DNA from: Candidatus Parcubacteria bacterium | GTDB taxonomy: Bacteria; Patescibacteriota; Patescibacteriia; Patescibacteriales; UBA12075 | DNA length: 64,000 bases | Direction of reading: 5' to 3' | Assembly: GCA_023132155.1 (NCBI GenBank) | Contig: JAGLYP010000023.1 | Coordinates: 11,504-75,503, forward strand | Part shown: positions 30,007-57,057 of the stretch, in pieces | Numbering within the stretch: the first letter of the stretch is position 1 | Layout of the letters: each line of letters opens with the position of its first letter | Notes under the pieces: model-generated | Told to the model about the DNA's origin: nothing | Databases searched by the model: none | The model's input: only the letters and a program-made list of their open reading frames with translations | Made by a program: the position numbers and the translations under genes

Positions 30007-33000
30007 ATGCAAAAATTACGCAAAGCTTTAGTTGTCAGCGTGATGGCGATCACTGTCTTGTCTCTTAGCGTGTTATCTGTACCTTTACAGGTTGACGCGG
30101 CTGCGCAAGCCGGTGATTTGATTAAAATGGATGGTCTTTCATCTGTTTATTATCTAGCCGCCGATGGCAAGCGTTACGTTTTCCCTAATGAAGCTACATA
30201 TTTTTCCTGGTACGGCGACTTTTCCGGAGTTGTGACTATTCCTCAATCTGAGTTAGAGTCTTATTCTTTGGGAGCTAATGTTACTGTTAGACCGGGAACA
30301 AAATTAATTAAAATTACCACAGATCCAAAAGTATACGCTGTTGAGCCAAACGGAAATTTAGTACACATTCCGGATGAAGCAACCGCTATTACTTTGTACG
30401 GAGCTGATTGGGCTGCACGAGTTGTTGATATCGCTGACGCGTTTTTCACCAACTACAATGTAACCGGAAATCAAACAAGCGCGACTGCTTATCCAACAGG
30501 TACTTTAGTTGATTTCGGCGGTACCGGTGATGTTTCTTACATTGACGCTGACGGAAACGCGAGAAAGATTGCTGATGAAGCAAGCTTTTTGGCAAACCGC
30601 TTTAAATGGGGTGATGTTATTGTTTCAACTTTAACAGCGCCTACTGCAGGCACTGAAGTTGCAGGTGCTGAAGAAGGTATGACTGACACATCTTCTGGCG
30701 CTGGCGGAACTGCCGGGGCTGGAACTGGATTGACTGTTGCTTTGGCGAGTGATACTCCTGCGGCTGGAAATATTCCAGATGATACCCCAGTTGAATTTTT
30801 AAAGTTTAATTTAACTGCTGCATCTGATGGTGATGTTACTGTTAACTCCGTCATTATTACCGCCTATGATTTGGGTAATTATGATAATATTGAAAATGTA
30901 ACTTTATACAGCGATGGCATTAAGATCTCATCTGAAAAAGATATCAACAGTGACGGAGAAGCTACTATTAATCTATCAAGTGGATTTTTAGTTGCTGCCG
31001 GAACTACTGAATCTTTAACTGTTCGCGCTGAAATTGATGACACTAGCGGAAACTTTGCCTTAGGTTTAGCTTCTGCTTCTGATATCGTAACTAACGGAGC
31101 AGTAGTAAGCGGATCTTTCCCAATTATCGGCAATACTAAAGCTATCGTTGATGTTACTATTGGCGATATTGAAATTGATGGTTTTGCTGCTAGTCCTGTA
31201 ACTGAAGAACTAGGAGAAGAAGATATCCTTTTAGCTGATTTTAATTTGGATAATGAAGGAAATGAAGATGTTATCTGGGAATCAGCTAGAATTGAAAATA
31301 AAGATGACGCTGGTGTTGCTGAAAATGTAAAACTTTACATTGAAGGCGACGAAGTTGCTGACGCTACTCTTAGCGGTGATTTCTATGTTTTTGACATTGG
31401 AAATTATTTAATTGAAGAGGGCGATAATATTGATGTTGAAGTAAGAGGTGACATTGGTGTTACTGACACTGATGATACTTTTAATCTTCAAATTGATGAA
31501 ATGAGTGATTTTTCATTTATGGGACAAAGATATGGCTATGGTATTGAGATGGCTGATGACGATGCGGATTTGAGCACAGGTATCGCCGTAACTTTAGAAA
31601 CTGGCGAGGTTACTATTGCTATGGATGAATCTGCTCAAGACAACGAAGTACGTTCTGGTACTGATAATGTAGTTTTAGCTGTTATCCAAATTGTTTCAAA
31701 CAGTGAAGACGCTACTATTGAAGAAATTGATGGTGGTACTGCTCAGTTTATTATTGAGCCTATCAGCGGAACAGTTGCTTTTGCTGAATTAGAAGATATT
31801 GAGCTTCATAATGTTGATGGAGGCACTTATGATGTTGATGCCGGTTCTGCTTTAGTGGGCGGAAACTGGGAATTAGATATTGATGAAGATATCTTTTTAC
31901 CAGTAGGCGAAATGCAAACTTTTGAATTATTAGCTGATATTACTGATGATATGGATGATGGAGTTGAATTACAGGTTACTTTAGAGGACGGAGCTTTTAC
32001 TATTACCGGTGAAGACTCTGATGCTGCTATTATCAATATCTCTCCTTCTAGCATTGACGCTAATGAAGTAACTATTGAAGAGGCTTCATTTGAGATGGTT
32101 GTTCAAGCCTTAACTGATGAATCAGTTGTCGGCGGCGCTTTAGATGTTTTAATTTTTGAAGCTACCTTAGAAGCTGGTGATTCTTCTGAAATTGAACTTC
32201 GATCCATTACTTTGGATGCAGAAGCTGGAAGTGACGCTTTTGATGATGATGACATTACCGATCTTAGATTAATGATTGATGGTGAAGAATTAGAAGCATT
32301 ATCCTCTGAAAGCTCTATGGACGGAACAGCTGCAGCTTATATCACATTCAACAGCTTAGATTCTACTTTAAGAGTAATTCCTGCCGGCGATATCGTAACT
32401 TTACAAGTTTATGCAGATATTGACGGAGATGCTACAGCTGGAAGTTTTGCTTTAGAAATTGACGCTGTTGCTGATATTGATGCTGACGATGAAGATGGTG
32501 ATGATGTTGTTGCCGGATCAAAAACAATTAATACTGGAACAGTTTCAAGAGATGTTACTATAGCTGAAACAGGAACTTTAAAAGTTGAGTTAAAGATTGA
32601 TGATACCGCAGCTAATAATGATGTTTACATCTTAGCTGGTACTGAAACCGTCCAAGATAGGTATCTTGGTGAATTAGTTTTTGTTACCGAGTACGAACCT
32701 ATTTTGGTTGAGACTTTGGTATTGGAGCAAACAGGTACTGCTGATAGCGGGGATATCAAATATGTTGTTTTATATGATGAAACAGGTGCCGAGGTAGCTT
32801 CTAAAGCTCCTAGCGCTGATGGTCATGTAAATTTTTCATCATTTGATATGGAATTCGCAGCTGACGAATCCACATCTCTTTTCCTCGGTGTTGTTACTAA
32901 GGGAATTAATGTTGATGGCGACGCCACTGCTACTGCCAGTTCATCCGCTACCATTAAGTTTGAAATTGCCGATGATACAGCATTAGCTGCTTTAAGTGTC

Positions 33001-33624
33001 GCTAGCGATGAAGCTGTAACTGCCAAAGGAGTTGAATCTAATGAGACTTTGGATATCGCTTCTACTACAGGTGCTGTTGCTGATAATCAGTATGCTGTTG
33101 ATGATACATCAAATGAAGCTACTTTAGCTGGCGCCGTGTTAACTTCTGTTGTTAACGTAATGGACGACGGTATTTTAACAGGCGGTACTCCTACAATTGC
33201 CAAATACAAATTTGTATTTGACAATGGCTCTAACCGAACTACCAGCAACGAAGAGTTAAAAGCTCAATTAGTATCTTTAACTCTTACTATTGCCACTTCT
33301 ACTGGAGTAGGGTTAGAAGAGGTTCGCGCTTATATAGAAGGCGATTCAGCCAATAAAACTGCTACTGGCGTTGATAGCGCAGCAGGAGAAGTTACTATTG
33401 TTCTAAGCAGTGGATTAGCTGATAGCTCTTTAGTTGACGGTGAAGTTACTTTAGTAATTACCGCTGACGTTACCGGTATTGATGAAAATAATTGGTTGCA
33501 GACAGAGATTGATGATTTGAGCGCAGACTTTACTTATAATGGCAACAACGGAGAAAACACTGATGATTTCTCTGATGCTTTGTTGGACATTACTGAAGTA
33601 ATTGGAGCATATCTTTCTAATTAA
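30007..33624 (+). CDS. Giant (1205 aa) secreted, extremely acidic cell-surface / S-layer-like protein, with an N-terminal tandem ~60-aa repeat domain.
   Basis: A signal peptide, two N-terminal repeats (LIKMDG...YYLAADGKRYVFPNEAT / LIKITTDPKVYAVEPNGNLVHIPDEAT), then a D/E/T/A/G/V-rich low-complexity body. It sits behind a ~500-nt GC-rich leader and ahead of a strong terminator. Confidence 0.7.
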   Translation: MQKLRKALVVSVMAITVLSLSVLSVPLQVDAAAQAGDLIKMDGLSSVYYLAADGKRYVFPNEATYFSWYGDFSGVVTIPQSELESYSLGANVTVRPGTKLIKITTDPKVYAVEPNGNLVHIPDEATAITLYGADWAARVVDIADAFFTNYNVTGNQTSATAYPTGTLVDFGGTGDVSYIDADGNARKIADEASFLANRFKWGDVIVSTLTAPTAGTEVAGAEEGMTDTSSGAGGTAGAGTGLTVALASDTPAAGNIPDDTPVEFLKFNLTAASDGDVTVNSVIITAYDLGNYDNIENVTLYSDGIKISSEKDINSDGEATINLSSGFLVAAGTTESLTVRAEIDDTSGNFALGLASASDIVTNGAVVSGSFPIIGNTKAIVDVTIGDIEIDGFAASPVTEELGEEDILLADFNLDNEGNEDVIWESARIENKDDAGVAENVKLYIEGDEVADATLSGDFYVFDIGNYLIEEGDNIDVEVRGDIGVTDTDDTFNLQIDEMSDFSFMGQRYGYGIEMADDDADLSTGIAVTLETGEVTIAMDESAQDNEVRSGTDNVVLAVIQIVSNSEDATIEEIDGGTAQFIIEPISGTVAFAELEDIELHNVDGGTYDVDAGSALVGGNWELDIDEDIFLPVGEMQTFELLADITDDMDDGVELQVTLEDGAFTITGEDSDAAIINISPSSIDANEVTIEEASFEMVVQALTDESVVGGALDVLIFEATLEAGDSSEIELRSITLDAEAGSDAFDDDDITDLRLMIDGEELEALSSESSMDGTAAAYITFNSLDSTLRVIPAGDIVTLQVYADIDGDATAGSFALEIDAVADIDADDEDGDDVVAGSKTINTGTVSRDVTIAETGTLKVELKIDDTAANNDVYILAGTETVQDRYLGELVFVTEYEPILVETLVLEQTGTADSGDIKYVVLYDETGAEVASKAPSADGHVNFSSFDMEFAADESTSLFLGVVTKGINVDGDATATASSSATIKFEIADDTALAALSVASDEAVTAKGVESNETLDIASTTGAVADNQYAVDDTSNEATLAGAVLTSVVNVMDDGILTGGTPTIAKYKFVFDNGSNRTTSNEELKAQLVSLTLTIATSTGVGLEEVRAYIEGDSANKTATGVDSAAGEVTIVLSSGLADSSLVDGEVTLVITADVTGIDENNWLQTEIDDLSADFTYNGNNGENTDDFSDALLDITEVIGAYLSN

Positions 33625-34413: not shown

Positions 34414-34486
34414 GCCGGCGTAGCTCAGTTGGTAGAGCAATGGTTTTGTAAACCATCGGTCGGGGGTTCGAGTCCCTTCGCCGGCT
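34414..34486 (+). tRNA. tRNA-Thr (anticodon UGU).
   Basis: GCCGGCG acceptor, GCTC/GAGC D-stem, anticodon loop TTTGTAA, T-loop TTCGAGT; 73 nt. Confidence 0.85.
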
Positions 34487-34487
34487 C

Positions 34488-34523
34488 AAATAAAATAAGT
34501 CTCTTTTGGGACTTATTTTATTT
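34488..34523 (+). terminator. Hairpin terminator after tRNA-Thr (AATAAAATAAGTC-tcttttg-GGACTTATTTTATTT).
   Basis: Read from the sequence. Confidence 0.6.
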
Positions 34524-34526
34524 GAG

Positions 34527-34560
34527 AGGTGAATGGGACTCGAACCCCTTTGACCAGTAT
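34527..34560 (-). repeat. Inverted tRNA-like fragment (GGGACTCGAACCCC, the complement of a T-arm).
   Basis: GGTGAATGGGACTCGAACCCCTTTGACCA. Confidence 0.4.
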
Positions 34561-34643
34561 TTTTAGAGAGTAAAAACATAGGAATTAAAATAAAATAATA
34601 AAAGAAAATATTAACGTGAATAATGACGGTGTAGGGTTCACCC

Positions 34644-34665
34644 TTTCGAGTCCCTTCGCCGGCTC
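34644..34665 (+). repeat. Direct duplicate of the 22-nt 3' end of tRNA-Thr (an att-like scar).
   Basis: TTCGAGTCCCTTCGCCGGCTCA is identical to 34465-34486, about 160 bp downstream of the tRNA. Confidence 0.7.
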
Positions 34666-34710
34666 AGATATATAAAAAACTATCCTGAATAGGATAGTTT
34701 TTTATATATC
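34666..34710. terminator. Perfect 20-bp-arm palindrome (AGATATATAAAAAACTATCC-tgaat-GGATAGTTTTTTATATATCT); terminator for the HD gene.
   Basis: Read from the sequence. Confidence 0.6.
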
Positions 34711-34734
34711 TGAGGGGCGTGGAATTAATTTGGA

Positions 34735-35334
34735 TTAATAGCCCGCCTCAGGCATTTTAATCCATTTATTGGCTTTGAGATGCCAGTCTGAAACATCAAC
34801 CTTTTGCAGTAAATCCCATAATTCTTTAGCGGAATTCGTATATAATTTTTTATCCCTGACCATTTTACGAATATCTTTCCATTTTTTCGGAAGTTTTGAT
34901 CCGCGCTCTTCAAACTCCTTAAGCTCTATGTCAACATCCAAATTGTCCGCGTCTTTCACAATTTTTGATTCAACGCAATTTCTGTCTTCGTAATTCCTGA
35001 ATTCATTATCATAAAAATCCTTGAGAATTGTGTTGGAAAATAGATCATTGGCGGCTAAAGCATCATCAGCTTTTACGTAAATTTTTTGCATATAGCCTAA
35101 ATCAGATGTTCTTGTTTCCGGCAAATCATGCACCATGGCCATGCGAATAATCTTATTTTCATCTCCGGCATTTTCCATTCTGGAAATTATCAAGGCGATC
35201 CAAATCACCCGCATGGTATGTTCTAAAACAGTAGCGCAATCCATGTCCAGGTGCTGCCGCCATCCTCGTTGGACATTTTTTAGAGTTCCAATTTCAAATA
35301 AGAAATCTATATTTCTTTTATTATGGTTTTTCAT
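34735..35334 (-). CDS. HD-domain phosphohydrolase (YfbR-like 5'-deoxynucleotidase family).
   Basis: H...HDLPE...D metal-binding motifs and KDADNLD; 199 aa. Confidence 0.75.
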   Translation of the reverse strand: MKNHNKRNIDFLFEIGTLKNVQRGWRQHLDMDCATVLEHTMRVIWIALIISRMENAGDENKIIRMAMVHDLPETRTSDLGYMQKIYVKADDALAANDLFSNTILKDFYDNEFRNYEDRNCVESKIVKDADNLDVDIELKEFEERGSKLPKKWKDIRKMVRDKKLYTNSAKELWDLLQKVDVSDWHLKANKWIKMPEAGY

Positions 35335-35419
35335 TTTATCATTTTATCTAGTTATTTTTTAATATTTTTATTATACCACGTTAGTTTTAAATTGTGAAAA
35401 TCTGTGTTAATATTGAAGT

Positions 35420-36517
35420 ATGAAAAAAATAATCATAATTTCACTATTATTGCTAATTTTACCGGTTTTTGTTGCCGCGCAGTCTGAAATGGAAAAAGAT
35501 ACGATTTTTAAGGCGGAAATTATTGAAATATTAGCCGAAAAAGAAATTATTTTAACTGACGGATCAACAGATAAGCAGCAGCATTTAAAAATGCTGGGGC
35601 TTGAAAGTGATTTTAAAGGCAAAGAGTTTGAGTTTAACGGGATAGGGGAAATAAATGTTTTAAATAAGCAGATATATGATGTCGGAGACAAGGTTTTGGT
35701 TATTGAAAATAAAGGGGAGGATAAAAATAATTATTATATAGTTGATTACGTGCGAGCCGGAGCGCTTTGGTGGCTGGCCGCGTTTTTTGTTTTGGTTTTA
35801 TTATTTGTTGGAAAAATCAAAGGGCTTAGATCTTTATTGTCGCTGTTTTTGTCTTTTGTAATTATAATAAAATTTATTATTCCGCAGATTATAACTGGCG
35901 CTAATCCTTTAATTATAACAATCATCGGTTCAGTCGCGATTTTGTTGATTATTATTTATCTTACGGAAGGCTTTAAGCCAAAGGCGCACTTGGCTTTTGC
36001 AAGCATATTTATAAGTTTGTTATTAACCGTAGTGGTTTCACAATTATTTGTCAGTTTGGCAAAATTAACCGGAGCGGCTTCCGAGGACGTGCTTTTTCTT
36101 TTTAATATTGACGGCTTAAGCATTAACTTGCAAGGCTTGCTTTTGGCCGGAATTATAATCGGCGCCTTGGGAGTTTTGGATGATGTTGTGATCGCGCAAG
36201 TTTCCACGGTTAAAGAAATTGCTTCGGCCGATAGGGGATTAAACAGTAAAGCGGTTTTTTCAAAAGCCTATAAAGTCGGAATATCGCATATCGCCTCAAT
36301 GACAAATACGCTTTTTTTAGCTTACGCAGGCGTTTCTTTGCCGTTATTGGTTTTGTTTGTTTCAGGAGAAAGCGTTTTTTCTTCTTGGACGCAAGCCGTT
36401 AATACGGAATTGATTGCCACAGAAATAATCCGCGCCTTAACCGGCAGCATCGGCTTAATTTTATCAGTGCCAATATCAACTTATATAGCCAGCCGATGGT
36501 TTTGCCGGCGGAGGTAG
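35420..36517 (+). CDS. YibE/F-like polytopic membrane protein.
   Basis: A signal/TM segment, a periplasmic N-terminal domain, then about eight TM helices; the family assignment is tentative. Confidence 0.5.
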   Translation: MKKIIIISLLLLILPVFVAAQSEMEKDTIFKAEIIEILAEKEIILTDGSTDKQQHLKMLGLESDFKGKEFEFNGIGEINVLNKQIYDVGDKVLVIENKGEDKNNYYIVDYVRAGALWWLAAFFVLVLLFVGKIKGLRSLLSLFLSFVIIIKFIIPQIITGANPLIITIIGSVAILLIIIYLTEGFKPKAHLAFASIFISLLLTVVVSQLFVSLAKLTGAASEDVLFLFNIDGLSINLQGLLLAGIIIGALGVLDDVVIAQVSTVKEIASADRGLNSKAVFSKAYKVGISHIASMTNTLFLAYAGVSLPLLVLFVSGESVFSSWTQAVNTELIATEIIRALTGSIGLILSVPISTYIASRWFCRRR

Positions 36518-36529
36518 TTTGGTTTATTT

Positions 36530-36551
36530 TGTAGCCCGTAGGGGAGTCGAA
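36530..36551 (-). repeat. Direct duplicate of the 22-nt 3' end of tRNA-Glu (an att-like scar).
   Basis: TGTAGCCCGTAGGGGAGTCGAA is identical to 36709-36730. Confidence 0.7.
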
Positions 36552-36710
36552 GGGCCGAGGCCCACGCCATCATTGTTCCTGCAGGGTGGAAATATCAAGA
36601 GAAAGTTAAGTTTAAGTATTGTTATATTTTAACACATATAATCATCAGCGGTTCTCACCCCTACGGGCCACAAACACAAAAACTCTGCTGTCGCAGAGCT
36701 TTTGTATTTG

Positions 36711-36783
36711 TAGCCCGTAGGGGAGTCGAACCCCTCTTTCTAGGATGAGAACCTAACGTCCTAAACCGATAGACGAACGGGCC
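36711..36783 (-). tRNA. tRNA-Glu (anticodon CUC).
   Basis: The reverse complement is GGCCCGTTCGTCTATCGGTTTAGGACGTTAGGTTCTCATCCTAGAAAGAGGGGTTCGACTCCCCTACGGGCTA; the D-arm and T-arm resemble bacterial tRNA-Glu. Confidence 0.75.
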
Positions 36784-37023
36784 TTAACCAATTATTAATT
36801 AAAAATTAATAATTAAGAATTTTTTAATTAAATTAAAAAACAGCTTTCTCGCTGATTTCTTTGATTATCTTAGCATGGTTTTTTGTTTTTGTCATTAGTT
36901 TTTTGTTTTTGTTTTTTATCCCTTTACTTTTTTTAAAAAATATATTAATATATAATTAATTAACCGCCAAAGAGGTGGTTTTTAGTTGTTTGGCCGGGTT
37001 GAAGTAATAAAAATATAATAAAT

Positions 37024-37097
37024 TCGGAGGTCGTCTAATGGTAGGACTCCAGGTTTTGGTCCTGGCTATCGGGGTTCGAATCCCTGCCTCCGAGCCA
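37024..37097 (+). tRNA. tRNA-Gln (anticodon UUG), CCA encoded.
   Basis: TCGGAGG acceptor, anticodon loop TTTTGGT, T-loop TTCGAAT; resembles bacterial tRNA-Gln. Confidence 0.8.
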
Positions 37098-37363
37098 CGA
37101 AAAATGCCCAAGGGCATCTCGTGGCACGCCACATCAAAAATTGGCATGTCACAACATTATAAGGTGAAAATTTAAAAAGCATTTTTACGTGAGCCGCGTG
37201 ATGCGCTTGCGCATTTTACGCGGCAAGGAACGTGGATTACGCACAGCCTTGCCATATAAAAAAAATTTATGTCAGATCGTTTAGAAATATCATGCATAAA
37301 AACACGTCTTTATCCGACGTGTTTTATGTTATACTATAAATGTTATTATTTTAAGAAAAAAGT

Positions 37364-37687
37364 ATGTTTTACATTTATTTACTAGAATGCCGACAAGACA
37401 AGTCTTGGTACATTGGCTATACTTCCGACTTAAAACGAAGGATAAACGATCATCAAAAAGGTTGCGGTTGCCGCACTACTTCCGCGAAAAATAACAAAGT
37501 TATCTCGCGGCAAGCCACGAAAAATGGTTTCGCCATCTCGCGGCAAGCTATGAAAAATAATTGGAAATTAATTTATTACGAAGCATACATAGAAAAGCAA
37601 GACGCTATTGGTAGAGAGAAATTTTTAAAAAGCGGATCGGGCAGGAAATATTTAAATAAGCAGTTAAGGAATTATTTATTAAAGTAG
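37364..37687 (+). CDS. GIY-YIG nuclease family protein (YhbQ/UPF0213-like) with an internal repeat-derived insertion.
   Basis: MFYIYLLECRQDKSWYIGYTSDLKRRINDHQKG...KLIYYEAY...REKFLKSGSGRKYLNKQL. The inserted segment ISRQATKNGFAISRQAMKNN is encoded by tandem ATCTCGCGGCAAGCCACGAAAAATGG units related to the tRNA-Gln 3' flank. Confidence 0.7.
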   Translation: MFYIYLLECRQDKSWYIGYTSDLKRRINDHQKGCGCRTTSAKNNKVISRQATKNGFAISRQAMKNNWKLIYYEAYIEKQDAIGREKFLKSGSGRKYLNKQLRNYLLK

Positions 37688-37861
37688 ACATAATTCTTGT
37701 TTAAAAGTTTTTAGATAGTTTTTTAATTTTTGTTTTATTTGTTGAGTTTTCATATGGGGTTATTATATCATATTTATGGTTGTGTTTGTAAAATAAGTAT
37801 TGATTTTTTGAGAAAATGAGCATAAGATTATAATAAATTAATAATTTAAAAAACAACTACT

Positions 37862-39205
37862 ATGAAAAAATATTTTGAATATCTTTTAAGTAAAGGGATA
37901 GTTAATCCGCCAGACGTAATAGATGTTTTTAGAAAAATTAACATAAAAGAAATACTAGAAATTGCATTTCAATGTTATATGCTAGCTGAAAAATCAGCAG
38001 AAAAGGACTACAAAGATAGCGTTTTTAATTTCGCTGTTAACAGCTCTATGAGTGGTGGCATTCATCCTTGCGCTAATTTGATATGCAGAACAAGAAATGT
38101 GTTTGAATTAGCCACATTTAATGCTCTTTATGCCGATAAACTAGTTATCTTAAATCCCTTCGAACATGTTTATCATCATATCGAGACTGGTTTTGACTTT
38201 AAAAATGAAAAACAATTAGATAACTTCATTGATAGATTACTTGGGGACATTGTTATAACTGTTATATTAAAGCCATTATTTGAAAGTAAGTTAATAACAA
38301 TAAACCCGGCACTCAGAGGCTATTGCAAGCCTTGCTTAAAGAAAAAAATATTGGAAGAAAAAACTCTACAAGAAGCATTTGATAAAATAGAAGACAAAGT
38401 AATATCTGATATTGGAAAAAATGTTAAAGTAACAATGGATACAAAAAATTCTATTGTTTTTGATGGAAAGGATAATTATCTTGGAGCCGAAGCATTTAGA
38501 TTTATAAAAGTACCCGCAAGCTTAAAACAGTTTACAAAATTTGTACCTTACACCTTTAACCCAGAAGAAATTAAAAAGTTGGGTCTTTGGGAAATACCTG
38601 TTGTGCCAATATTTAATGATGTGATAATGCAAAAGTTTCTTATCACCAATCAAAAAGTAAATTATCTTACAAATAGAAAAATTGAGAGCGATATCATTAG
38701 CTATTTAAACGCAAATAATCTTGAAATATCTAATGAAAATGATATTTTTAATGGACTTACTCATAAGTTGCCTTTTGTAATGAATGCTTCATTGGAGAAA
38801 CTTGTTGATTTTAGAAATAATGAAGCCGAATCTTTTGATGCATACAGACTTTCAGTAAAAAGGGCCATAGAACTAAGTAAGGAAGAAACAAAGCAAAAAA
38901 TAATTGAAGAAATATCAAGTGACATTATAAAACCAGAATTAAAAAAATTAAGCAGAGTGTTTAAAACTCATCAAAAAAAATTTACTAATAAAGGTAAGGA
39001 GAAAATTATTTTCAATAGTCTTTTATTGTCCGCTGGATTATTTGCTAATAATCAATTTGGGTTAAATTTTGAAAACATTTTAGCACTTGGTGGTTTACAC
39101 AAGTTATCGGATATAGGTGGTGATTTCATTGAGGCTTCGTCTGTCCCAGATGAGGTAATAAATAATGATTATTATTTTTTATGGCAAATTCAAAAAGGAT
39201 TATAG
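37862..39205 (+). CDS. Orphan hypothetical protein (447 aa), very AT-rich; single-gene unit in a tRNA / GIY-YIG hotspot.
   Basis: No recognisable motifs; flanked by its own terminator hairpin. Confidence 0.5.
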   Translation: MKKYFEYLLSKGIVNPPDVIDVFRKINIKEILEIAFQCYMLAEKSAEKDYKDSVFNFAVNSSMSGGIHPCANLICRTRNVFELATFNALYADKLVILNPFEHVYHHIETGFDFKNEKQLDNFIDRLLGDIVITVILKPLFESKLITINPALRGYCKPCLKKKILEEKTLQEAFDKIEDKVISDIGKNVKVTMDTKNSIVFDGKDNYLGAEAFRFIKVPASLKQFTKFVPYTFNPEEIKKLGLWEIPVVPIFNDVIMQKFLITNQKVNYLTNRKIESDIISYLNANNLEISNENDIFNGLTHKLPFVMNASLEKLVDFRNNEAESFDAYRLSVKRAIELSKEETKQKIIEEISSDIIKPELKKLSRVFKTHQKKFTNKGKEKIIFNSLLLSAGLFANNQFGLNFENILALGGLHKLSDIGGDFIEASSVPDEVINNDYYFLWQIQKGL

Positions 39206-39256
39206 ATACAAATATATTTATTTTAAAATATTAGTTCGAACATCGTCCGCGACCCC

Positions 39257-39302
39257 GAGCAAATATAAATACACCCTTTTTAGGGTGTATTTATATTTGC
39301 TC
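39257..39302 (+). terminator. Perfect 21-bp-stem hairpin (GAGCAAATATAAATACACCCT-tttt-AGGGTGTATTTATATTTGCTC).
   Basis: Read from the sequence. Confidence 0.6.
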
Positions 39303-39358
39303 GGAGGCATGGTATAATAAAATTATAAATATATTTTAATAATTAAAATAAAAAAACT

Positions 39359-40006
39359 ATGAAAATTAAATTATTTGCCATGATTTTATTTATGGTGTTT
39401 ATGTCAATTCCGGCTTTTGCGCAAAGTGAAAATGACGCGAACAGCAACAAGCCTGTACCTACACAAATTTCCGAGAAAAAGGAAATGGGCGAGCAAAAAA
39501 AAGCGGATAATATAGACGAGTCAAAAGCATTACGAGAAACAGCAAAAAATAAAAAAGAGAAAGCAAAACAGCTTAAAAGTAAATCCGCCAATGAGCATAG
39601 AAGCGCGGTTGCTGATTTTGTCCAAAATTTATTAGACGTGGCTGATCGTCAGTCTTTAGGCGGTATTGGCGAGCAGGTAAGAGAGATTGCCAGACAACAG
39701 AACGCTTCCGAAGACAAGGTAACCCCGAATTTAGAAAAAGTAAAGAATAAAAACAAAGTTAGAAAATTTTTATTCGGTACTGATTTCAAAAAAACAAAAG
39801 AAATTAAGAAAGAAATGCAAGAAGCCAAGAAAAGATTAAATGAGCTGGAAAAAACGAAAGACGAAGTTGATAATTCCGCTGATAAAGCAATAATCGAGGA
39901 ACAAATAAAGAGTTTTCAAGATAACATAAATAATGTATTGAAAGACGTGGAAGATGAAGAAAAGAAGTTTAGTATATTCGGTTGGGCGAAAAAAATGTTT
40001 ATTTAA
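39359..40006 (+). CDS. Secreted lysine-rich coiled-coil protein, hypothetical.
   Basis: Signal peptide MKIKLFAMILFMVFMSIPAFA, then K/E-rich low complexity. Confidence 0.5.
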   Translation: MKIKLFAMILFMVFMSIPAFAQSENDANSNKPVPTQISEKKEMGEQKKADNIDESKALRETAKNKKEKAKQLKSKSANEHRSAVADFVQNLLDVADRQSLGGIGEQVREIARQQNASEDKVTPNLEKVKNKNKVRKFLFGTDFKKTKEIKKEMQEAKKRLNELEKTKDEVDNSADKAIIEEQIKSFQDNINNVLKDVEDEEKKFSIFGWAKKMFI

Positions 40007-48909: not shown

Positions 48910-49407
48910 ATGAGCAGAATAAATGAAAAAAAATATTATAATATAATTTTATTCTTTGCGAATAAGATTAAAAACGGAACTCTTGGAAAATTAAAAATGA
49001 TGAAGTTATTATACTTCCTTGATTTTGATTTTTTTGAGAAATATGGGAAATCAGTAACCGGTGATAAATATTTGCGTTGGGAAAATGGTCCTGTGCCGCG
49101 AAAAGCTGAACAAATAATAAAACAAATGAACGGTGTTGATATAAAAATATCAAAAAGAAAGGTAGGCAACGGTTATAATGACCAGCAGCACATTGAGGCT
49201 CTGAAAACTTTTGATTTAAATTTATTTTCAAAAGAAGAATTAATAATGATGGATGATATTGCCGATAAGTGGGAAAAATTTTCCGGCACTGAAATGAAAA
49301 ATGCCAGCCATGGCGAAGCTCCATGGATCGCGACAAAACCAAATGAAATAATTGATTATAATCTTGCATATTATCGCAATAAATACGGCGAAATGGATAA
49401 AGATTAA
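48910..49407 (+). CDS. Panacea-domain (DUF4065, SocA/GepA-like) antitoxin.
   Basis: GKLKMMKLLYFLDFDFFEKYGKSVTGDKYLRWENGPVP matches the Panacea core (LKLQKLLYYA...WKHGPV). Confidence 0.65.
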   Translation: MSRINEKKYYNIILFFANKIKNGTLGKLKMMKLLYFLDFDFFEKYGKSVTGDKYLRWENGPVPRKAEQIIKQMNGVDIKISKRKVGNGYNDQQHIEALKTFDLNLFSKEELIMMDDIADKWEKFSGTEMKNASHGEAPWIATKPNEIIDYNLAYYRNKYGEMDKD

Positions 49408-53180: not shown

Positions 53181-54740
53181 ATGACCCTAGATTTGTCGCC
53201 AATTTATAATTTTTTTGCCTTGCCCATGAATGAGCAAGTATATCTTTTTTTGCTGTATTTCGCGTGGATTCCGGTTGCTTTTGTAATTCTTTATGGCGCC
53301 AAAGAACTGTGGGTAGATTATATTCAAGGCAAATGGGCGGCAGAGCAAAAATATATTTTACTGGCGATTGATATTCAGCGCGGAAATGAACAATCAGTTA
53401 AAGCGGTAGAAAATTTATTTGTATATTTTGGCGGAGCGCATGGCACTTTTAGTTTAATTGAAAAATTTTGGGTAGGAAAACATCAGCTTGGTTTTAGCTT
53501 TGAAATTGTCAGTATAGAAGGATATACCCAGTTTTTAATCCATACGCATGAAGCATTTCGCAATTTTGTTGAAACCGCGATTTATGCCCAGTATCCTGAC
53601 GCTGAAATTACCGAAGTTGATGATTATGTTGAAGATATCCCCACTAAATATCCTGATGATGAATATGATATTTGGGGCGCGGAATTTATTTATAGCGATC
53701 CTCCCGCTTATCCGATTAGGACTTATAAGGATTTTGAGGATACGGCAGCCGGCAAGCCCGAACTTCAGTTTAAAGACCCGATGGCTTCGTTAATGGACTT
53801 ATGCAGCAGCCTGGGACCGGGTGAACAGCTTTGGTATCAGATGATTATCGTGCCTACTGACTTTGAATGGACAAAAGAACTGAACAAAGAAGCCGGTAAA
53901 ATTTTAAATGAAAAAGTAAAGGCCGAAAAAGGCTCTTTTTCCAAGTTTTTCGGCGAAATCAAGAGCTGGATTGATGAATTCACCGAACAGGCGTTCAGCT
54001 GGAGCATGGGTTCTTTTGCTGAAGCGGAAACGGCTGATGACGCTTTAAAAATGATGAATTTGAAACCTCAGGAAAAAAAGCAGATTGAGGCTATTCAAAA
54101 TAAAATATCAAAAATCGGTTTTGAAGCAAAAAATAGGATGATTTATGTGGCTAAGAAAGAAAATATGAACAAACCCAAAGTTGTTAACGGTTTTGTGGGC
54201 TATATGAAGCAATTTACCGACTGGGATTTAAACGGTTTAAAGCCGGACATGAAAAAAACCGCGACCTCAACTTCTTATTTTTTTAAAGAAGCGCGCGTTA
54301 ATGCCAAAAAAATTAAAATAATGGCGGCCTATAAAAAAAGAAGCGATTTTTTAGGGCGTTTAACTAAAGTTTTTAATGTTGAAGAATTGGCGACTTTGTG
54401 GCATTTTCCAATTGAAAGCGTAGTTAAGGCGCCATTAATTCAAAAGGCGGCAGGCCGCAAGGCAGAACCGCCAATGAGCCTGCCCTTAAGCGAGGGCGCG
54501 GTAAGTGAAGCGGCTTTATATCCCGAAGATGAAGATATTTTTGGCGGCGTTGATTTGAAAGAGAGCGGCGCTAACCATGAAGAAAAAGAAGATGATAATA
54601 AAATAAAAGATAAGCGCGGTGATTTGGATGAGATATTCAGTATTGAAGAAGATATTAATAAAAAATATCCCGTGAAAAAAATAAAAATCGCCCCGGCCGA
54701 GGCTAAAAGTTCGCCTCCGTCCAATTTGCCTTTTGCCTGA
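53181..54740 (+). CDS. Membrane-anchored hypothetical protein; partner of the downstream TraD/VirD4-like ATPase.
   Basis: A single N-terminal TM (VYLFLLYFAWIPVAFVILYGA), then a large soluble domain. Confidence 0.45.
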   Translation: MTLDLSPIYNFFALPMNEQVYLFLLYFAWIPVAFVILYGAKELWVDYIQGKWAAEQKYILLAIDIQRGNEQSVKAVENLFVYFGGAHGTFSLIEKFWVGKHQLGFSFEIVSIEGYTQFLIHTHEAFRNFVETAIYAQYPDAEITEVDDYVEDIPTKYPDDEYDIWGAEFIYSDPPAYPIRTYKDFEDTAAGKPELQFKDPMASLMDLCSSLGPGEQLWYQMIIVPTDFEWTKELNKEAGKILNEKVKAEKGSFSKFFGEIKSWIDEFTEQAFSWSMGSFAEAETADDALKMMNLKPQEKKQIEAIQNKISKIGFEAKNRMIYVAKKENMNKPKVVNGFVGYMKQFTDWDLNGLKPDMKKTATSTSYFFKEARVNAKKIKIMAAYKKRSDFLGRLTKVFNVEELATLWHFPIESVVKAPLIQKAAGRKAEPPMSLPLSEGAVSEAALYPEDEDIFGGVDLKESGANHEEKEDDNKIKDKRGDLDEIFSIEEDINKKYPVKKIKIAPAEAKSSPPSNLPFA

Positions 54741-54759
54741 TTTATATTAAAAAGAAAAT

Positions 54760-56514
54760 ATGTTCAACGATGATATAACAGTATTTGCGGAAACGACTTT
54801 TCGCAATAAAAATCAAAAATTCGGAATCAAAATTGACGATCGGCGCCGGCATATGTATCTGATTGGAAAGACAGGCATGGGCAAATCAACGGTTTTGGAA
54901 AATATGATAATTGGCGATATTCGCGCGGGAAAAGGCGTTGCAATCGTGGATCCGCACGGGGATTTGGCGGAAAAAGTGATTGAGTATATTCCGACGGACA
55001 GAATCAACGATGTGGTTTATTTTAATCCGGCGGATATGGAGAATCCGATTGCTTTTAACGTGGTTGAGCATGTCGCGCCGCATTTAAGGCATTTGGTTGC
55101 CTCCGGACTTTTGGGGGTTTTTCAAAAATTGTGGGCTGATTCATGGGGGCCGCGGCTTGAATATATTTTAAGAAATTCAATATTGGCGGTTTTGGATTAT
55201 CCGGGTTCCACGCTTTTGGCGGTAACCCGCATGCTGTCTGATAAAAAATTCAGGAAAAAAGTAATTGATAAAATTCAGGATCCGGTTGTAAAGGCTTTTT
55301 GGGTAAATGAGTTTGCCGGCTATAATGATAAATTCGCCTCTGAAGCGGTTTCGCCGATACAAAATAAAGTCGGACAATTTTTATCAAGCTCTTTAATCAG
55401 GAATATTGTCGGACAGGTGAAATCTTCAATTGATATGCGGAAAATTATGGATGAAGGCAAAATTTTGATTATGAATTTAAGCAAAGGGAGAATCGGCGAA
55501 GATAATTCACGCCTTTTAGGCGCGATGATGATTACCAAAATTCAATTGGCGGCCATGAGCAGGGTAGATGTTGATGAAAGCGAAAGAAAAGATTTTTATT
55601 TATATGTAGACGAATTTCAAAATTTTGCCACTGACAGCTTTGCCAATATTTTATCCGAGGCCAGAAAATATCGTTTGAATTTGGTTTTAGCGCATCAATA
55701 TGTTGAGCAGGTTGAAGAAAAAGTGCGCAACGCGATATTCGGCAATGTCGGCACCTTGATTGTGTTTCGCGTGGGCGCGGCTGATGCCGAGTGGGTGGTT
55801 CCTGAATTTACACCGACTTTTACCGAAGAAGATATTGTTAATCTTCCTAAATATGAAGTTTATTTAAAATTAATGATTGACGGAATCGCGTCCGAGCCTT
55901 TTTCAGCCAGAGGCTTGCCGCCTTTGTCTGATTCTGAAAAAACCGGAAATACGCAAAAAGTGATTAGTGTTTGCCGTGAGCGCTATGCTAAACCCAGAGA
56001 GGTGGTTGAAGATAAAATAAATCGTTGGCATGAAGACGGCGGCAAAGATGAGGAAGAATATGATAATAGAAATAGTAAAACACAAAATAATAATATTAAA
56101 AATATCGGCGAAACGGATAATAAAAAAAATAATTCCAGCATCAGCCCGGTTGCTAAAAATCTTGATAATTCTGTTTATAAACACGAGGCAAAATGCAGCC
56201 GTTGCGGCAAAGATACGAAGATTTCTTTTAAACCGGATGGAATCCGCCCGATCTATTGCCGTGATTGTTTGACAATAATACGAGAAGAAAAAAAACAAGA
56301 ACTTGAAAATCGCAAGGAACTTAAAAGCAGAGAATTAAAAAAAATTAAAAACAAATCAGAAGATGCTGTTATGCAAGATGTCTCAACTATTTCCCTTAAA
56401 GACGCGTTGTCAAAGCCTCCGGTAAAATTTAAAGCGGGCTCACGGAGACAATTTAATAAATCCCAAAAACCAAAAACCAACATTCTTGGAGAAGGGGAGG
56501 AAGTTGTGTTTTGA
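54760..56514 (+). CDS. TraD/TrwB/VirD4-like P-loop ATPase (type IV secretion DNA-binding-domain family) with a C-terminal CxxC...CxxC zinc ribbon.
   Basis: Walker A LIGKTGMGKST, Walker B LYVDEFQNFA, LVLAHQ, and the ribbon KCSRCGKDTKISFKPDGIRPIYCRDC. Confidence 0.6.
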   Translation: MFNDDITVFAETTFRNKNQKFGIKIDDRRRHMYLIGKTGMGKSTVLENMIIGDIRAGKGVAIVDPHGDLAEKVIEYIPTDRINDVVYFNPADMENPIAFNVVEHVAPHLRHLVASGLLGVFQKLWADSWGPRLEYILRNSILAVLDYPGSTLLAVTRMLSDKKFRKKVIDKIQDPVVKAFWVNEFAGYNDKFASEAVSPIQNKVGQFLSSSLIRNIVGQVKSSIDMRKIMDEGKILIMNLSKGRIGEDNSRLLGAMMITKIQLAAMSRVDVDESERKDFYLYVDEFQNFATDSFANILSEARKYRLNLVLAHQYVEQVEEKVRNAIFGNVGTLIVFRVGAADAEWVVPEFTPTFTEEDIVNLPKYEVYLKLMIDGIASEPFSARGLPPLSDSEKTGNTQKVISVCRERYAKPREVVEDKINRWHEDGGKDEEEYDNRNSKTQNNNIKNIGETDNKKNNSSISPVAKNLDNSVYKHEAKCSRCGKDTKISFKPDGIRPIYCRDCLTIIREEKKQELENRKELKSRELKKIKNKSEDAVMQDVSTISLKDALSKPPVKFKAGSRRQFNKSQKPKTNILGEGEEVVF

Positions 56515-56757: not shown

Positions 56758-57057
56758 ATGCAAAAAAAAGGATACAATTTTTATGTATATATTATGGCAA
56801 GCACAAGCGGTACGATTTATATTGGGATGACAAATAATTTGGAAAGAAGAGTTATTGAACATAAAAAAGGAGTAATTAACGGCTTCTCAAAAAAATATTC
56901 ATGCAATAAGCTTATATATTATGAACATTATCAATATGTATATGATGCGATTAGTAGAGAAAAAGAAATTAAAAAATGGCGCAGAGAGAAAAAACAAAAA
57001 TTGGTTGCAAAATTAAATCCGCATTGGAATGATTTGTCAAAAGAATTGTTTATATGA
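56758..57057 (+). CDS. GIY-YIG nuclease family protein (YhbQ-like).
   Basis: FYVYIMASTSGTIYIGMTNNLERRVIEH...KLIYYE...REKEIKKW. Confidence 0.75.
   Translation: MQKKGYNFYVYIMASTSGTIYIGMTNNLERRVIEHKKGVINGFSKKYSCNKLIYYEHYQYVYDAISREKEIKKWRREKKQKLVAKLNPHWNDLSKELFI

Follow-up and report, generated by a model that had tools for sequence, protein, structure and literature searches.

In tRNA-targeting integrases of the T-loop class (class II), the attP core spans the T-arm to the tRNA 3' end, and mycobacteriophage Ms6 was retargeted to other tRNA-Ala genes by editing this core (PMC1762012). The far border of integrated elements is marked by partial tRNA copies (PMC9897764). We analysed a 64-kb stretch of DNA from a Candidatus Parcubacteria bacterium (64,000 nucleotides, hereafter the window), in which tRNA-Thr and tRNA-Glu are each followed by a short insert ending in such a copy. 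Like T-loop class elements (Ms6; islands, prophages), the insert is bordered by an intact tRNA on one side and by an exact partial copy of the 3' end on the other, has a block of identity (22-26 nt here, 26 nt in the Ms6 core) that starts in the T-loop and continues to the end of the tRNA, and shows a present-or-absent distribution among relatives, with the original 3' end and terminator of tRNA-Thr displaced. Unlike these elements, which are kilobases long and carry an integrase beside the att site, it measures ~180 bp and has neither genes nor an integrase. Further differences are that members of a single family sit at five or more tRNA species, that an inverted copy of the target end forms a long palindrome with it, and that tRNA-Glu retains its native terminator.

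Other known systems share some of these features. CIMEs, too, are non-autonomous and lie between att-type repeats, and an integrase acting in trans is presumed to mobilise them; however, they are kilobase derivatives of an identified parental ICE with one target, whereas the insert is approximately attP-sized, has several targets and has no parental element in viral, genome or metagenome scans. MITEs of the Correia/NEMIS type resemble it in being ~150 bp long, non-coding and intergenic, with an AT-rich interior, inverted-repeat ends and the capacity to fold into a long stem. In contrast to MITEs, its inverted ends copy the adjoining tRNA and differ by copy, 22-24 nt are duplicated (82 nt in contig L024) in place of a short target-site duplication of fixed length, and each genome has few, diverged copies, strictly at tRNA 3' ends. 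Instead of many near-identical copies and an autonomous IS, the 84 kb examined of the source genome hold two copies, their motifs 65% identical and their spacers unrelated, and no related IS was found. The integron attC site and the attP(+) hairpin of CTX phage, which integrates at dif, also form an imperfect palindrome in which an inverted, mismatched target copy pairs with the direct copy, and the right end of the CTX prophage shows a similar order (inverted site, ~100 nt, direct hybrid site). Yet the target here is a tRNA T-loop, not attI or dif; the junction reads CCY|TTCRA, R''/L''-L'/R' boxes (GTTRRRY) and Xer-binding arms are lacking, no integron integrase lies nearby, and a single-stranded form is hypothetical. 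Tandem inversion duplications, generated by fold-back template switching, have a comparable direct-inverted-direct segment with a first junction at the terminator palindrome. They consist of locally derived sequence only, with the copies joined at quasi-palindromes, whereas the insert holds a foreign conserved motif and a fixed-length spacer between the copies and recurs at other tRNAs and in other hosts.

Two intact tRNA genes frame the locus, tRNA-Thr(UGU) on the plus strand (34414-34486/7; ARAGORN, and Rfam at 71.8 bits) and tRNA-Glu(CUC) on the minus strand (36710/1-36783; ARAGORN and Rfam); tRNA-Gln(UUG) follows on the plus strand (37024-37094/7; ARAGORN and Rfam). A sequence-only reading of the window had reported exact 22-nt duplicates of both tRNA ends. 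The Thr duplicate is real and exact, though one base further on (34645-34666, not 34644-34665); the Glu duplicate is also real and, with 24 nt at 36528-36551, two bases longer than reported. The duplicated ends comprise the last 22-24 bases, and because they are exact, start at the T-loop and reach the tRNA end, they can be called att-like, as that reading had done. It had also described a mirror-image architecture around a bracketed block; this is simply the outcome of two convergent tRNA genes.

The source is a metagenome-assembled genome and the repeats are short, so that an assembly artefact, chance repeats or extra mis-parsed tRNA genes had to be considered. This explanation is refuted by the evidence and was rejected with near certainty. 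The region with both inserts is present at 99.9-100% identity in six independent contigs (NCBI, Logan, ENA), which stem from five or more samples and were built by different assemblers (three pipelines), and the same architecture occurs in unrelated metagenomes. Final assembly k-mers are usually longer than a 22-24-nt repeat, which counts against an assembly artefact. The motif combined with the T-loop sequence, AATGAYGGYGTRGGNNTCNNCCY-TTCGA, is present twice in the window, against 0 occurrences expected by chance. At the distal copies no tRNA is predicted by ARAGORN or by Rfam (E-value threshold 5), and on the window Rfam returns only the three tRNAs above threshold and, below it, only spurious miRNA-type palindrome matches. 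No further matches to the Thr and Glu 22-mers were found at up to 4 substitutions in the window and the relatives' loci, and no copy of the tRNA-Gln 3' end at up to 3 mismatches.

Both inserts share one layout: the tRNA is followed by a terminator hairpin, an imperfect inverted copy (X') of its last ~27 nt, an AT-rich spacer, a 23-nt motif and an exact tRNA end starting at T-loop base T54. Each comprises ~180 bp of non-coding DNA (about 156 nt of interior, or 178-182 bp from repeat to repeat), and the 156-nt interior contains no ORF, integrase pseudogene or coding remnant. At tRNA-Thr, on the plus strand, the proximal repeat X is the last 22 nt of the tRNA, T54 to N73 plus CA (TTCGAGTCCCTTCGCCGGCTCA, 34467-34488); the distal repeat at 34645-34666 is its exact copy, and the longer direct repeat 34467-34492 vs 34645-34670 is identical at 25 of 26 positions. 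Directly 3' of the tRNA lies a terminator-like hairpin, h1 (AATAAAATAAGTC / TCTTTTGG / GACTTATTTTATT, 34489-34522; inverted repeat and fold), followed by X' (TGAGAGGTGAATGGGACTCGAACCCC, 34523-34548), of which the T-loop and T-stem part is exact and the acceptor part diverged. X' scores 34 against its own tRNA (null 12.7 +/- 2.2). The spacer (34549-34621; GC 0.20 in the last 70 nt before the motif) leads to the motif (AATGACGGTGTAGGGTTCACCCT, 34622-34644), which contains the hairpin AGGGT-TC-ACCCT (34633-34644) and adjoins T54 of the distal repeat. A second hairpin, h2 (34663-34714), is a perfect, 100% complementary palindrome with 24-bp arms.

At tRNA-Glu, on the minus strand, the proximal repeat (36707-36730) and the distal repeat (36528-36551) are identical at 24 of 24 positions, from T54 to the tRNA end plus CAAA, the latter lying 10 nt past the YibE/F stop codon. 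In between are the terminator hairpin adjoining the tRNA (36675-36706; terminator scan), X' (TTTGTGGCCCGTAGGGGTGAGAACCGCT, minus strand, 36647-36674), which copies the last ~27 nt of tRNA-Glu plus trailer and scores 32 against its own tRNA but 12-20 against other tRNAs, the AT-rich spacer (36575-36646) and the motif (AATGATGGCGTGGGCCTCGGCCC, 36552-36574; hairpin GGGCC-TC-GGCCC). From start to start the repeats are 178 bp (Thr) and 179 bp (Glu) apart, and the distal copies begin 157-158 nt past the intact tRNA end. The inverted tRNA-like fragments noticed earlier are longer than described, since tRNA 3' end, terminator and inverted copy together form long imperfect palindromes, with 39-nt arms at 85% for Thr (34463-34501 / 34510-34548) and 31-nt arms at 90% for Glu (36658-36688 / 36693-36723); fold z-scores of the two regions are -14 and -7.9. 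The X'/X inverted repeats (26 nt at 73%; 17 nt at 94%) are target-derived, differ between the copies and show covariation in their pairing.

In four close relatives (L007, L010/L011, L013, L014; YibE/F 84-88% identical) both modules and the gene for an HD-domain protein are absent, and tRNA-Thr, YibE/F and tRNA-Glu are tightly packed. The synteny check proposed in the sequence-only reading hence bears out its suspicion that the segments are variably present. An identical structure in relatives, which would have indicated an ancient fixed arrangement, is not seen; it is contigs of the same species that are identical, all six being occupied, with no empty-site or excision polymorphism. The distal Thr copy and h2 align to the tRNA-Thr 3' end and terminator of L013 at 86% over 59 nt (alignment and blast), matching an empty site before precise insertion. 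Since the far copy and its terminator are orthologous to the tRNA end of this relative, the module has pushed the original 3' end outwards and provided the gene with a new one. By this alignment h2 is the original tRNA-Thr terminator, like that of L013, to which h1 has no similarity. The opposite is found at tRNA-Glu, where the terminator next to the intact tRNA is orthologous to the relatives' (alignment to L010) and the distal copy lacks a terminator; there the module replaces about 14 nt relative to the relatives, so the empty site is less clean than at tRNA-Thr.

The idea that the two protein genes are bracketed cargo did not survive this comparison. The YibE/F membrane protein gene (35420-36517, plus strand; Pfam) has this position between tRNA-Thr and tRNA-Glu in every relative and is ancestral context, not cargo. 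The gene for an HD-domain (YfbR-like) phosphohydrolase (34735-35334, minus strand; Pfam), missing between tRNA-Thr and YibE/F in L007, L010, L013 and L014, lies outside the repeat pair and beyond the original terminator. This kind of gene is ordinary and widespread in Patescibacteria, and its closest homologues are found in unrelated contexts. Its insertion begins with an extension of the terminator palindrome, the right arm of h2 being 12-13 nt longer than in L013 (24-bp perfect arms vs 12 bp). The HD gene was gained separately, as a single gene and in this lineage only, and does not belong to the module. No two relatives agree in their flanks; in the place of fmt, the window has tRNA-Gln, a GIY-YIG gene and orphan genes.

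The motif pattern retrieved three further low-GC contigs of the same layout, with the module at tRNA-Thr(GGU), at tRNA-Lys(CUU) on a Falkowbacteria-like contig and at one unidentified tRNA end. Four copies are complete and stem from at least two, probably three, organisms; the fifth is partial. Repeat spacing in the complete copies is 178, 179, 178 and 182 bp (the last two being the metagenome copies at tRNA-Thr(GGU) and tRNA-Lys(CUU)), the copy starts 157/158/157/161 nt past the tRNA end, and the motif starts 133/132/133/137 nt after the first repeat. The duplications measure 22, 24, 22 and 82 nt, the 82 nt being those of L024. Among 37 tRNA calls in the examined loci a downstream copy exists only at motif-bearing tRNAs; tRNA-Gln in the window and tRNA-Met and tRNA-Arg in L027 are without the module. 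Because the insert and a near-identical 23-base signature recur behind other tRNAs in distantly related bacteria, it looks like an undescribed miniature tRNA-targeting mobile element, and the family to which it belongs is found in Patescibacteria. A pattern scan of 185,579 species-representative genomes yielded no real match, which means that the family is rare or the pattern too strict.

These measurements bear on the two origins offered in the sequence-only reading, decayed integrative elements and a tiny non-autonomous tRNA-targeting element family. The inserts might be scars of ordinary large prophages or islands, i.e. attL and attR with attP arms left after independent internal deletions removed integrase and cargo. 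Such elements are classically recognised by an exact copy of part of the tRNA at their far border (PMC9897764), and the block of identity found here belongs to the T-loop type (PMC1762012). The surroundings of these tRNAs are a hotspot of rearrangement, as seen from the flanks. In L024 the copy has behind it another left end, truncated to X, the hairpin and 26 nt of X', and after that radC-like and RhuM island-type gene fragments, an arrangement compatible with mini copies derived from a larger element. Nevertheless, we consider scars distinctly improbable. Independent deletions would not yield such uniform spacing at four tRNAs with a fixed motif distance, the interior holds no coding remnant, and as the motif is shared while the cores differ, several parental elements would have to have shrunk alike. 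Four complete copies with a motif 132-137 nt past the first repeat do not fit random scars; by these comparisons the insert is a discrete conserved module, and the element family, with its shared 23-nt motif recurring at three other tRNAs of other Patescibacteria, is the better fit of the two.

The motif has the consensus AATGAYGGYGTRGG-NNTCNN-CCY (23 nt) and contains a covarying hairpin. In an alignment of the five copies AATGAYGGYGT is invariant, the hairpin loop is conserved as YTCR, and the stem is paired in 25/25 cells, with compensatory changes in three of the five pairs. None of 500 shuffles reached the covariation score or the percentage paired; 12/500 reached the compensatory-pair count. 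Motif identity is 65% between the two window copies and 74-91% between these and the Falkowbacteria-like L027. The 91% is that of the window Thr copy with L027; the HU proteins encoded by the window and by L027 share only 34% identity. Together with the stem covariation, this difference suggests a motif under constraint and horizontal spread. Spacer sequence identity between copies is at shuffle level while the length is conserved. In 4/4 complete copies identity starts exactly at T54, base 53 differing, and in 5/5 copies the last hairpin base equals T-stem base 64 of the target.

Such conservation could also reflect a host-beneficial RNA or DNA module and not a parasite, for instance a small RNA that begins with the motif, ends in a genuine tRNA 3' end and may be processed or CCA-tailed like a tRNA, or a structured tRNA trailer or terminator regulating the tRNA or a neighbouring gene. 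Consistent with this are the hairpin covarying around its conserved loop, the invariant motif part, the covarying pairing of X' and X, the kept length with free spacer sequence, the match to base 64 of each target and fixation in the population. We nonetheless regard it as improbable, because the module is absent at both tRNAs in four close relatives and occurs at only some tRNAs per genome, matches no curated Rfam covariance model, has no conserved promoter at a fixed distance in the aligned copies, and forms no acceptor stem from the motif 5' part and the copied 3' strand except at tRNA-Thr.

The explanation that we favour, tentatively and at slightly less than an even chance, is that each tRNA carries one copy of a non-autonomous miniature integrative element which uses the T-loop as junction and is moved in trans. 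Each copy would bring a replacement tRNA 3' end (T54 to end) plus a terminator hairpin, h1 in the case of tRNA-Thr, and an inverted copy of the same end, so that tRNA end, terminator and inverted copy could fold as a long hairpin; the fixed-length AT-rich spacer, the motif with its small covarying hairpin and the second exact tRNA end would follow. Entry would occur by site-specific recombination at or inside the 7-nt T-loop, a junction corresponding to the 'class II / T-loop' sublocation of tyrosine integrases, keeping the tRNA intact and shifting its old 3' end ~160 nt downstream. The near-universal T-loop sequence TTCRA could permit occupation of different tRNA species. As the element is too small for a gene, the recombinase would have to come in trans. 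Several observations weigh against this explanation. The integrase search suggested earlier, carried out with Pfam on the window ORFs of at least 90 aa judged likely genes and on the called genes of 20-kb flanks, detected no integrase, transposase or recombinase in the 64-kb window or the 20 kb more of the same genome; the short related contigs have none either, apart from an IS66 transposase in L025 that seems to be unrelated. Every one of the six contigs of this species is occupied, the 185,579 genomes gave no real match, and in relative L033 hairpin, X' and part of the spacer occur without motif or distal copy, so the left part is able to exist alone. With the native Glu terminator next to its tRNA, a simple crossover in the repeat would not suffice unless there was a further deletion or the element was derived locally. 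Moreover, a single integrase is not expected to give a perfectly matching acceptor strand for five different tRNAs, and a 178-bp double-stranded circle is an awkward recombination substrate.

The lack of a recombinase gene in the window and its flanks agrees with spread by replication template switching or short-homology recombination, with no dedicated enzyme. A nascent strand would fold back at the terminator palindrome, giving X', jump to a donor via the inverted T-arm and return to the target via the conserved T-loop TTCRA, whereby the tRNA end would be copied twice. Both junction regions do lie in T-arm sequence common to all tRNAs, X' is target-specific, the Glu copy keeps its native terminator beside the tRNA, the duplicated block of L024 starts exactly at the T-loop and stops exactly where the inverted T-arm ends (82 nt, 81/82 identical), and the HD insertion likewise starts with a terminator-palindrome extension. 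We think this unlikely, however, since template switching would not preserve the motif between window and L027, the compensatory hairpin changes and the spacer length. In addition, the two Thr terminators are wholly different, which re-copying does not predict, and distantly related hosts would still need DNA transfer.

Returning to the miniature element, it is doubtful, though conceivable, that the module represents a novel kind of self-contained mobile unit, which recognises the T-arm common to all tRNA genes, enters at T54 and brings or regenerates the matching 3' end. Such a unit may recombine as a folded single strand, the inverted copy pairing with the direct copy and mimicking the target duplex, in analogy to CTX-phage attP or integron attC and possibly by a host recombinase; it would amount to gene-free movement between tRNA species and distantly related Patescibacteria. 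If the module is mobile, whatever the kind of enzyme and the way in which the repeat may be re-matched to each new target, it would be the smallest known tRNA-targeting integrative element and would have several tRNA targets. It would raise the question of how a gene-less ~180-bp unit locates the T-loop and keeps the tRNA functional, and the answer might lead to a recombinase, or to a repair route, whose specificity for tRNA ends is programmable.

The family accounts for short partial tRNA copies and long palindromes behind Patescibacteria tRNA genes. Such copies can mislead tRNA annotation as well as prophage and island callers, which may take a tRNA-end repeat for an island border. They also mark tRNA 3' flanks as sites of gene gain in reduced genomes, with the HD gene at this locus and the island fragments in L024.

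The sequence-only reading had described tRNA-Thr(UGU) (34414-34486, + strand) and tRNA-Glu(CUC) (36711-36783, - strand) as each followed by a nearby duplicate of its own 3' end, and as a whole this observation is confirmed. Both genes and the neighbouring tRNA-Gln are called as it gave them by ARAGORN and Rfam. The last 22 nt of tRNA-Thr (34467-34488), TTCGAGTCCCTTCGCCGGCTCA, recur exactly at 34645-34666, one base to the right of the start first reported; including the flanks, 25 of 26 positions are identical. The repeat at tRNA-Glu is exact as well and measures 24 nt (36707-36730 = 36528-36551) instead of 22. From start to start, the repeated end, hereafter X, lies 178 bp (Thr) and 179 bp (Glu) apart. 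No downstream copy of its own 3' end is found at tRNA-Gln. The inverted tRNA-like fragments, hereafter X', exist and are larger than previously stated: together with the tRNA 3' end and the terminator each forms one long imperfect palindrome, with 39-nt arms of 85% identity at Thr (34463-34501 / 34510-34548) and 31-nt arms of 90% identity at Glu (36658-36688 / 36693-36723). Fold z-scores of the two palindrome regions are -14 and -7.9. At least five samples have yielded six contigs (NCBI, Logan, ENA) that agree at 99.9-100% over the region, which excludes an assembly artefact. That artefact or chance accounts for the arrangement is extremely improbable. The source was identified as a metagenome-assembled genome of the Parcubacteria group of Patescibacteria (GCA_030631305.1, contig DAOVLK010000001.1).

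Comparison with relatives shows both segments to be insertions. In four relatives with YibE/F proteins 84-88% identical (L007/L008/L009, L010/L011, L013 and L014-L016), tRNA-Thr, terminator, the gene of the membrane protein YibE/F, terminator and tRNA-Glu follow each other within approximately 1.4 kb. Between these tRNAs none of the four carries the HD phosphohydrolase gene, the segments of approximately 160 bp or the repeats. The distal Thr copy and the hairpin behind it (34645-34714) align with the tRNA-Thr end and terminator of L013 (86% over 59 nt, loop included); the distal copy thus represents the original 3' end. By this alignment, the inserted DNA is the 178 bp preceding it, comprising a new 3' end, a proximal hairpin, X', a spacer and a motif described below, and such an arrangement is the outcome expected of integration into a tRNA gene. 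At tRNA-Glu, the terminator adjoining the intact tRNA is the orthologue of the L010 terminator (approximately 88%); X', spacer, motif and X replace approximately 14 nt between this terminator and the YibE/F stop codon, and no terminator follows the distal X. At this locus, simple crossover within X is therefore insufficient, and a further deletion or a locally derived element is needed.

The proposal that the HD and YibE/F genes are cargo bracketed by the repeats is not supported, as YibE/F is ancestral between both tRNAs and HD lies outside the repeat pair. The apparent mirror image is two convergent tRNA genes with one module each. The HD gene (34735-35334; YfbR-like HD hydrolase, widespread in Patescibacteria) is located beyond the original Thr terminator. 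We reject it as a part of the module, since its closest homologues, 79% and 75% identical, occur in unrelated, tRNA-free contexts. Against the four relatives it is a separate single-gene gain of approximately 675 bp (34715-35385). Its left junction coincides with a lengthened terminator palindrome (34663-34714), which has perfect 24-bp arms as compared to a 12-bp stem in L013 and takes in the final 4 nt of the tRNA copy; the right arm of the original tRNA-Thr terminator is 12-13 nt longer than in L013. The bases after this palindrome (TGAGGGGCGTGGAA) bear a weak likeness to one more inverted copy of the tRNA-Thr end.

The description of the locus as a tRNA-associated hotspot was well founded in the sense of a rearrangement hotspot: both flanks of the block of tRNA-Thr, YibE/F and tRNA-Glu differ in every relative. 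Synteny breaks just upstream of tRNA-Glu (36784-40006), of whose 5' flank approximately 90 nt are kept in the relatives, and fmt-gatB of the relatives is replaced by tRNA-Gln, a small GIY-YIG gene and two orphan genes (447 and 215 aa, GC approximately 0.31) without Pfam or PHROG match. Some further features of the window may be mentioned. Two free-standing GIY-YIG genes of approximately 100 aa (URI domain only) lie at 37364-37687, adjoining tRNA-Gln, and at 56758-57057, upstream of alaS and adjoining a TrwB/TraG-like ATPase gene. A GIY-YIG homing endonuclease is weakly matched in PHROGs, and no link to the tRNA modules is shown. A DUF8128 protein gene followed by the gene of this coupling-protein-like ATPase (54760-56514) spans 53181-56514, and a SocA/Panacea antitoxin-domain gene is found at 48910-49407; the ATPase and SocA/Panacea genes are hints of mobile or defence-related DNA in other parts of the window. 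Approximately 800 bp upstream of tRNA-Thr, with a 153-aa ORF in between, lies a 1205-aa ORF (30007-33624) that has no Pfam match and is found in all same-species contigs.

Both inserts share a block directly 5' of the distal X, AATGACGGTGTAGGGTTCACCCT at Thr and AATGATGGCGTGGGCCTCGGCCC at Glu (aligned in tRNA orientation), and a degenerate pattern of this motif matches the window in just these two places, the chance expectation being 0. Alignment of the whole inserts scored 72 as compared to 27 +/- 8.5 for shuffles, with the likeness concentrated in the motif; the two spacers aligned alone show no significant similarity. Public collections were scanned with AATGANGGNGTNGGNNTCNNCCNTTCRA. Among five matches in JGI metagenomes, three lie in contigs of 31-33% GC (L024, L025, L027) and carry the whole architecture, behind tRNA-Thr(GGU) in L024 and tRNA-Lys(CUU) in L027; the L025 copy carries a different tRNA end and is interrupted by the contig end. 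The other two (L026, L028; GC 61-64%) were rejected as coding-sequence coincidences, and the single match among 185,579 species-representative genomes, on a Deltaproteobacteria contig of 55% GC without a tRNA, was taken as random. Viral contigs scanned with three patterns gave zero matches, and a blastn search of 50,697 phage records with two element copies had no relevant match. The idea of a tiny non-autonomous family of tRNA-targeting elements is supported, and its range now includes other tRNAs and further Patescibacteria.

The order is constant: a tRNA ending in X (T54 of the T-loop to N73, plus CA), terminator hairpin, X', AT-rich spacer, motif, X. For window Thr, window Glu, L024 and L027, in this sequence, X is spaced by 178, 179, 178 and 182 bp, the distal copy lies 157, 158, 157 and 161 nt from the tRNA end, and the motif starts 133, 132, 133 and 137 nt after the first X, while the spacer sequences are no closer to each other than shuffled ones. 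Independent deletion scars of large islands could leave tRNA ends behind, and are contradicted by this constant size; we regard them as improbable. In all four complete copies identity starts exactly at T54, and the base before it differs. Across the 37 tRNA calls of all loci compared, a downstream copy of the own 3' end occurs only at motif-bearing tRNAs; tRNA-Met and tRNA-Arg of L027 have none. None of the tRNA genes of the window, L024, L025 and L027 encodes CCA, yet each has CA directly after the discriminator base. The exact repeat stops at this CA in three of the four complete copies, the Glu repeat being two bases longer.

Within the motif lies a small hairpin, RGGGN-YC-NCCCY. Its 25 stem cells are all paired, and three of five pairs show compensatory changes; not one of 500 shuffles reached the covariation score or percentage paired of this hairpin. 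The host of L027 is Falkowbacteria-like (YmdB 75% identical to a Candidatus Falkowbacteria protein), and its HU protein is only 34% identical to that of the window. Nevertheless the L027 motif and that of window Thr agree at 91%, as against 65% between the two copies within the window genome. It follows that the copies are old, that the motif is under constraint and that the family is not restricted to one lineage. The covarying hairpin and the fixation of the module would also suit a structured RNA or DNA useful to the host, an unlikely explanation given that the module is missing from relatives and from other tRNAs. No matching family exists in Rfam, and no description of such a unit was found in the full-text literature. 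Two further interpretations of the motif were rejected. A mini-tRNA formed with the copied end is not a general feature: GAYGGYG pairs with the copied acceptor strand at tRNA-Thr only (6/7), and in the motif alignment this pairing is absent at Glu, Lys and the third metagenome tRNA end. Peptide coding was dismissed because the frame ATG-AYG-GYG-TRG has, in three of five copies, a stop as its fourth codon.

Concerning X', each interval was aligned to the reverse complement of the last 40 nt of each tRNA. For window Thr, window Glu and L024 the own tRNA had clearly the best score (34, 32 and 30, respectively), the null being approximately 13 +/- 2. The match of L027 is weak; its X' is orthologous to that of L033, a relative, which is recognisably Lys-derived. 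X' and X are paired in the RNAalifold consensus, and within the T-loop part of this pairing both sides carry changes. By the alignment scores X' derives from the target tRNA. Own-tRNA scoring and the L033 comparison also led us to reject 'TGAGAG' as a conserved element terminus, as it represents, in diverged form, the complement of the end of the respective tRNA. Conceivably, though we consider it doubtful, the substrate is a folded single strand in which X' pairs with X and mimics the target.

The metagenome contigs add information on how the parts behave. In L024, a complete module is followed (601-1446) by a second, truncated left end consisting of X, hairpin and 26 nt of X', identical to the first at 81 of 82 positions. 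Beyond it lie a promoter with ribosome-binding site, a truncated radC-like ORF (51 aa) and an N-terminal fragment of RhuM. Tandem integration and a larger relative of the module that carries genes are both compatible with this layout, and the segment resembles what is left of a genomic island at this tRNA. Fold-back with template switching at T-arm microhomology, independent of any enzyme, would likewise account for this 82-nt duplication, for X' and for the Glu terminator layout. It fails on the conservation of motif and spacing, and we consider it a minor possibility. In L025, the contig end inside the motif suggests a repeat-induced assembly break. An IS66-family transposase gene (47-1483) lies approximately 270 bp from the module copy and an IS66-type end (GTAAGCG...) approximately 45 nt after the distal X, at about position 1700; most simply, this is an unrelated insertion. 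For the tRNA-Lys copy, a clean empty site or a parental element was sought in L033, which with L034 and L035 is related to L027 (YmdB 84% identical), and an inverted cluster with a partial module was found instead. The Arg-Met-Lys tRNA cluster is inverted (L027 3400-4200, L033 1474-2120), with one breakpoint of the inversion exactly on the motif's 5' border, and all three relatives retain hairpin, X' and a shortened spacer behind tRNA-Lys, homology to L027 ending exactly before GAYGG of the motif; motif and distal X are absent there. The left part can thus occur by itself, and the breakpoints of rearrangements coincide with the boundaries of the module.

A recombinase was sought close by. The module interior, 156 nt, contains no ORF. 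No integrase, recombinase or transposase was found by Pfam among those window ORFs that were considered likely genes (at least 90 aa) or by PHROGs among the orphan genes, and the called genes of the 10 kb past each window end include none of these and no tRNA, nor does the motif occur there. The integrase search that had been proposed thus came out negative over this range. Our leading, still tentative reading, held at somewhat below even confidence, is that the module is a non-autonomous miniature integrative element with its junction at or in the T-loop. A T-loop sublocation has been described for class II tyrosine integrases (PMC1762012). The attP core of mycobacteriophage Ms6, 26 bases long, extends from the T-arm to the tRNA end, exchange probably takes place in the 7-base T-loop, and other tRNA-Ala genes become integration targets when the core is edited (PMC1762012). 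As for how the module moves, we infer that the conserved motif beside the junction, the fixed spacer length and the AT-rich interior would provide the geometry for binding of a recombinase and a bending protein, as in an attP-like site.

Among known systems, the module works most like tRNA-integrating elements of the T-loop class. These encode their own integrase, whereas the module does not; it further differs in its size of approximately 180 bp, its several tRNA targets and the inverted target copy it carries. Elements in papers on tRNA gene fragments are kilobase-sized (PMC9897764). MITEs are alike in size and foldability, but the module does not match them in target-site duplication, copy number or constancy of the terminal repeats. 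CIMEs share the logic of att-flanked DNA without recombination genes, although no parental element is known for the module. A likeness to CTX-phage attP and integron attC sites would apply if the folded X'-X single strand is the substrate.

Finally, short GC-rich hairpins of a recurring type lie directly up- or downstream of tRNA genes in several Patescibacteria contigs (L027 3720-4030, minus strand; L024 290-348; L007 7226-7290). Examples are CCCTACGAAGCTTCAGCGAAGTAGGG and CTACGCATAAAGCTTCGGAT.GCAGGC, and the L007 form, ACGCTAAAGCTTTGCGGGGCAAGCCCC, is present twice. These hairpins may constitute a family of tRNA-leader or spacer repeats.
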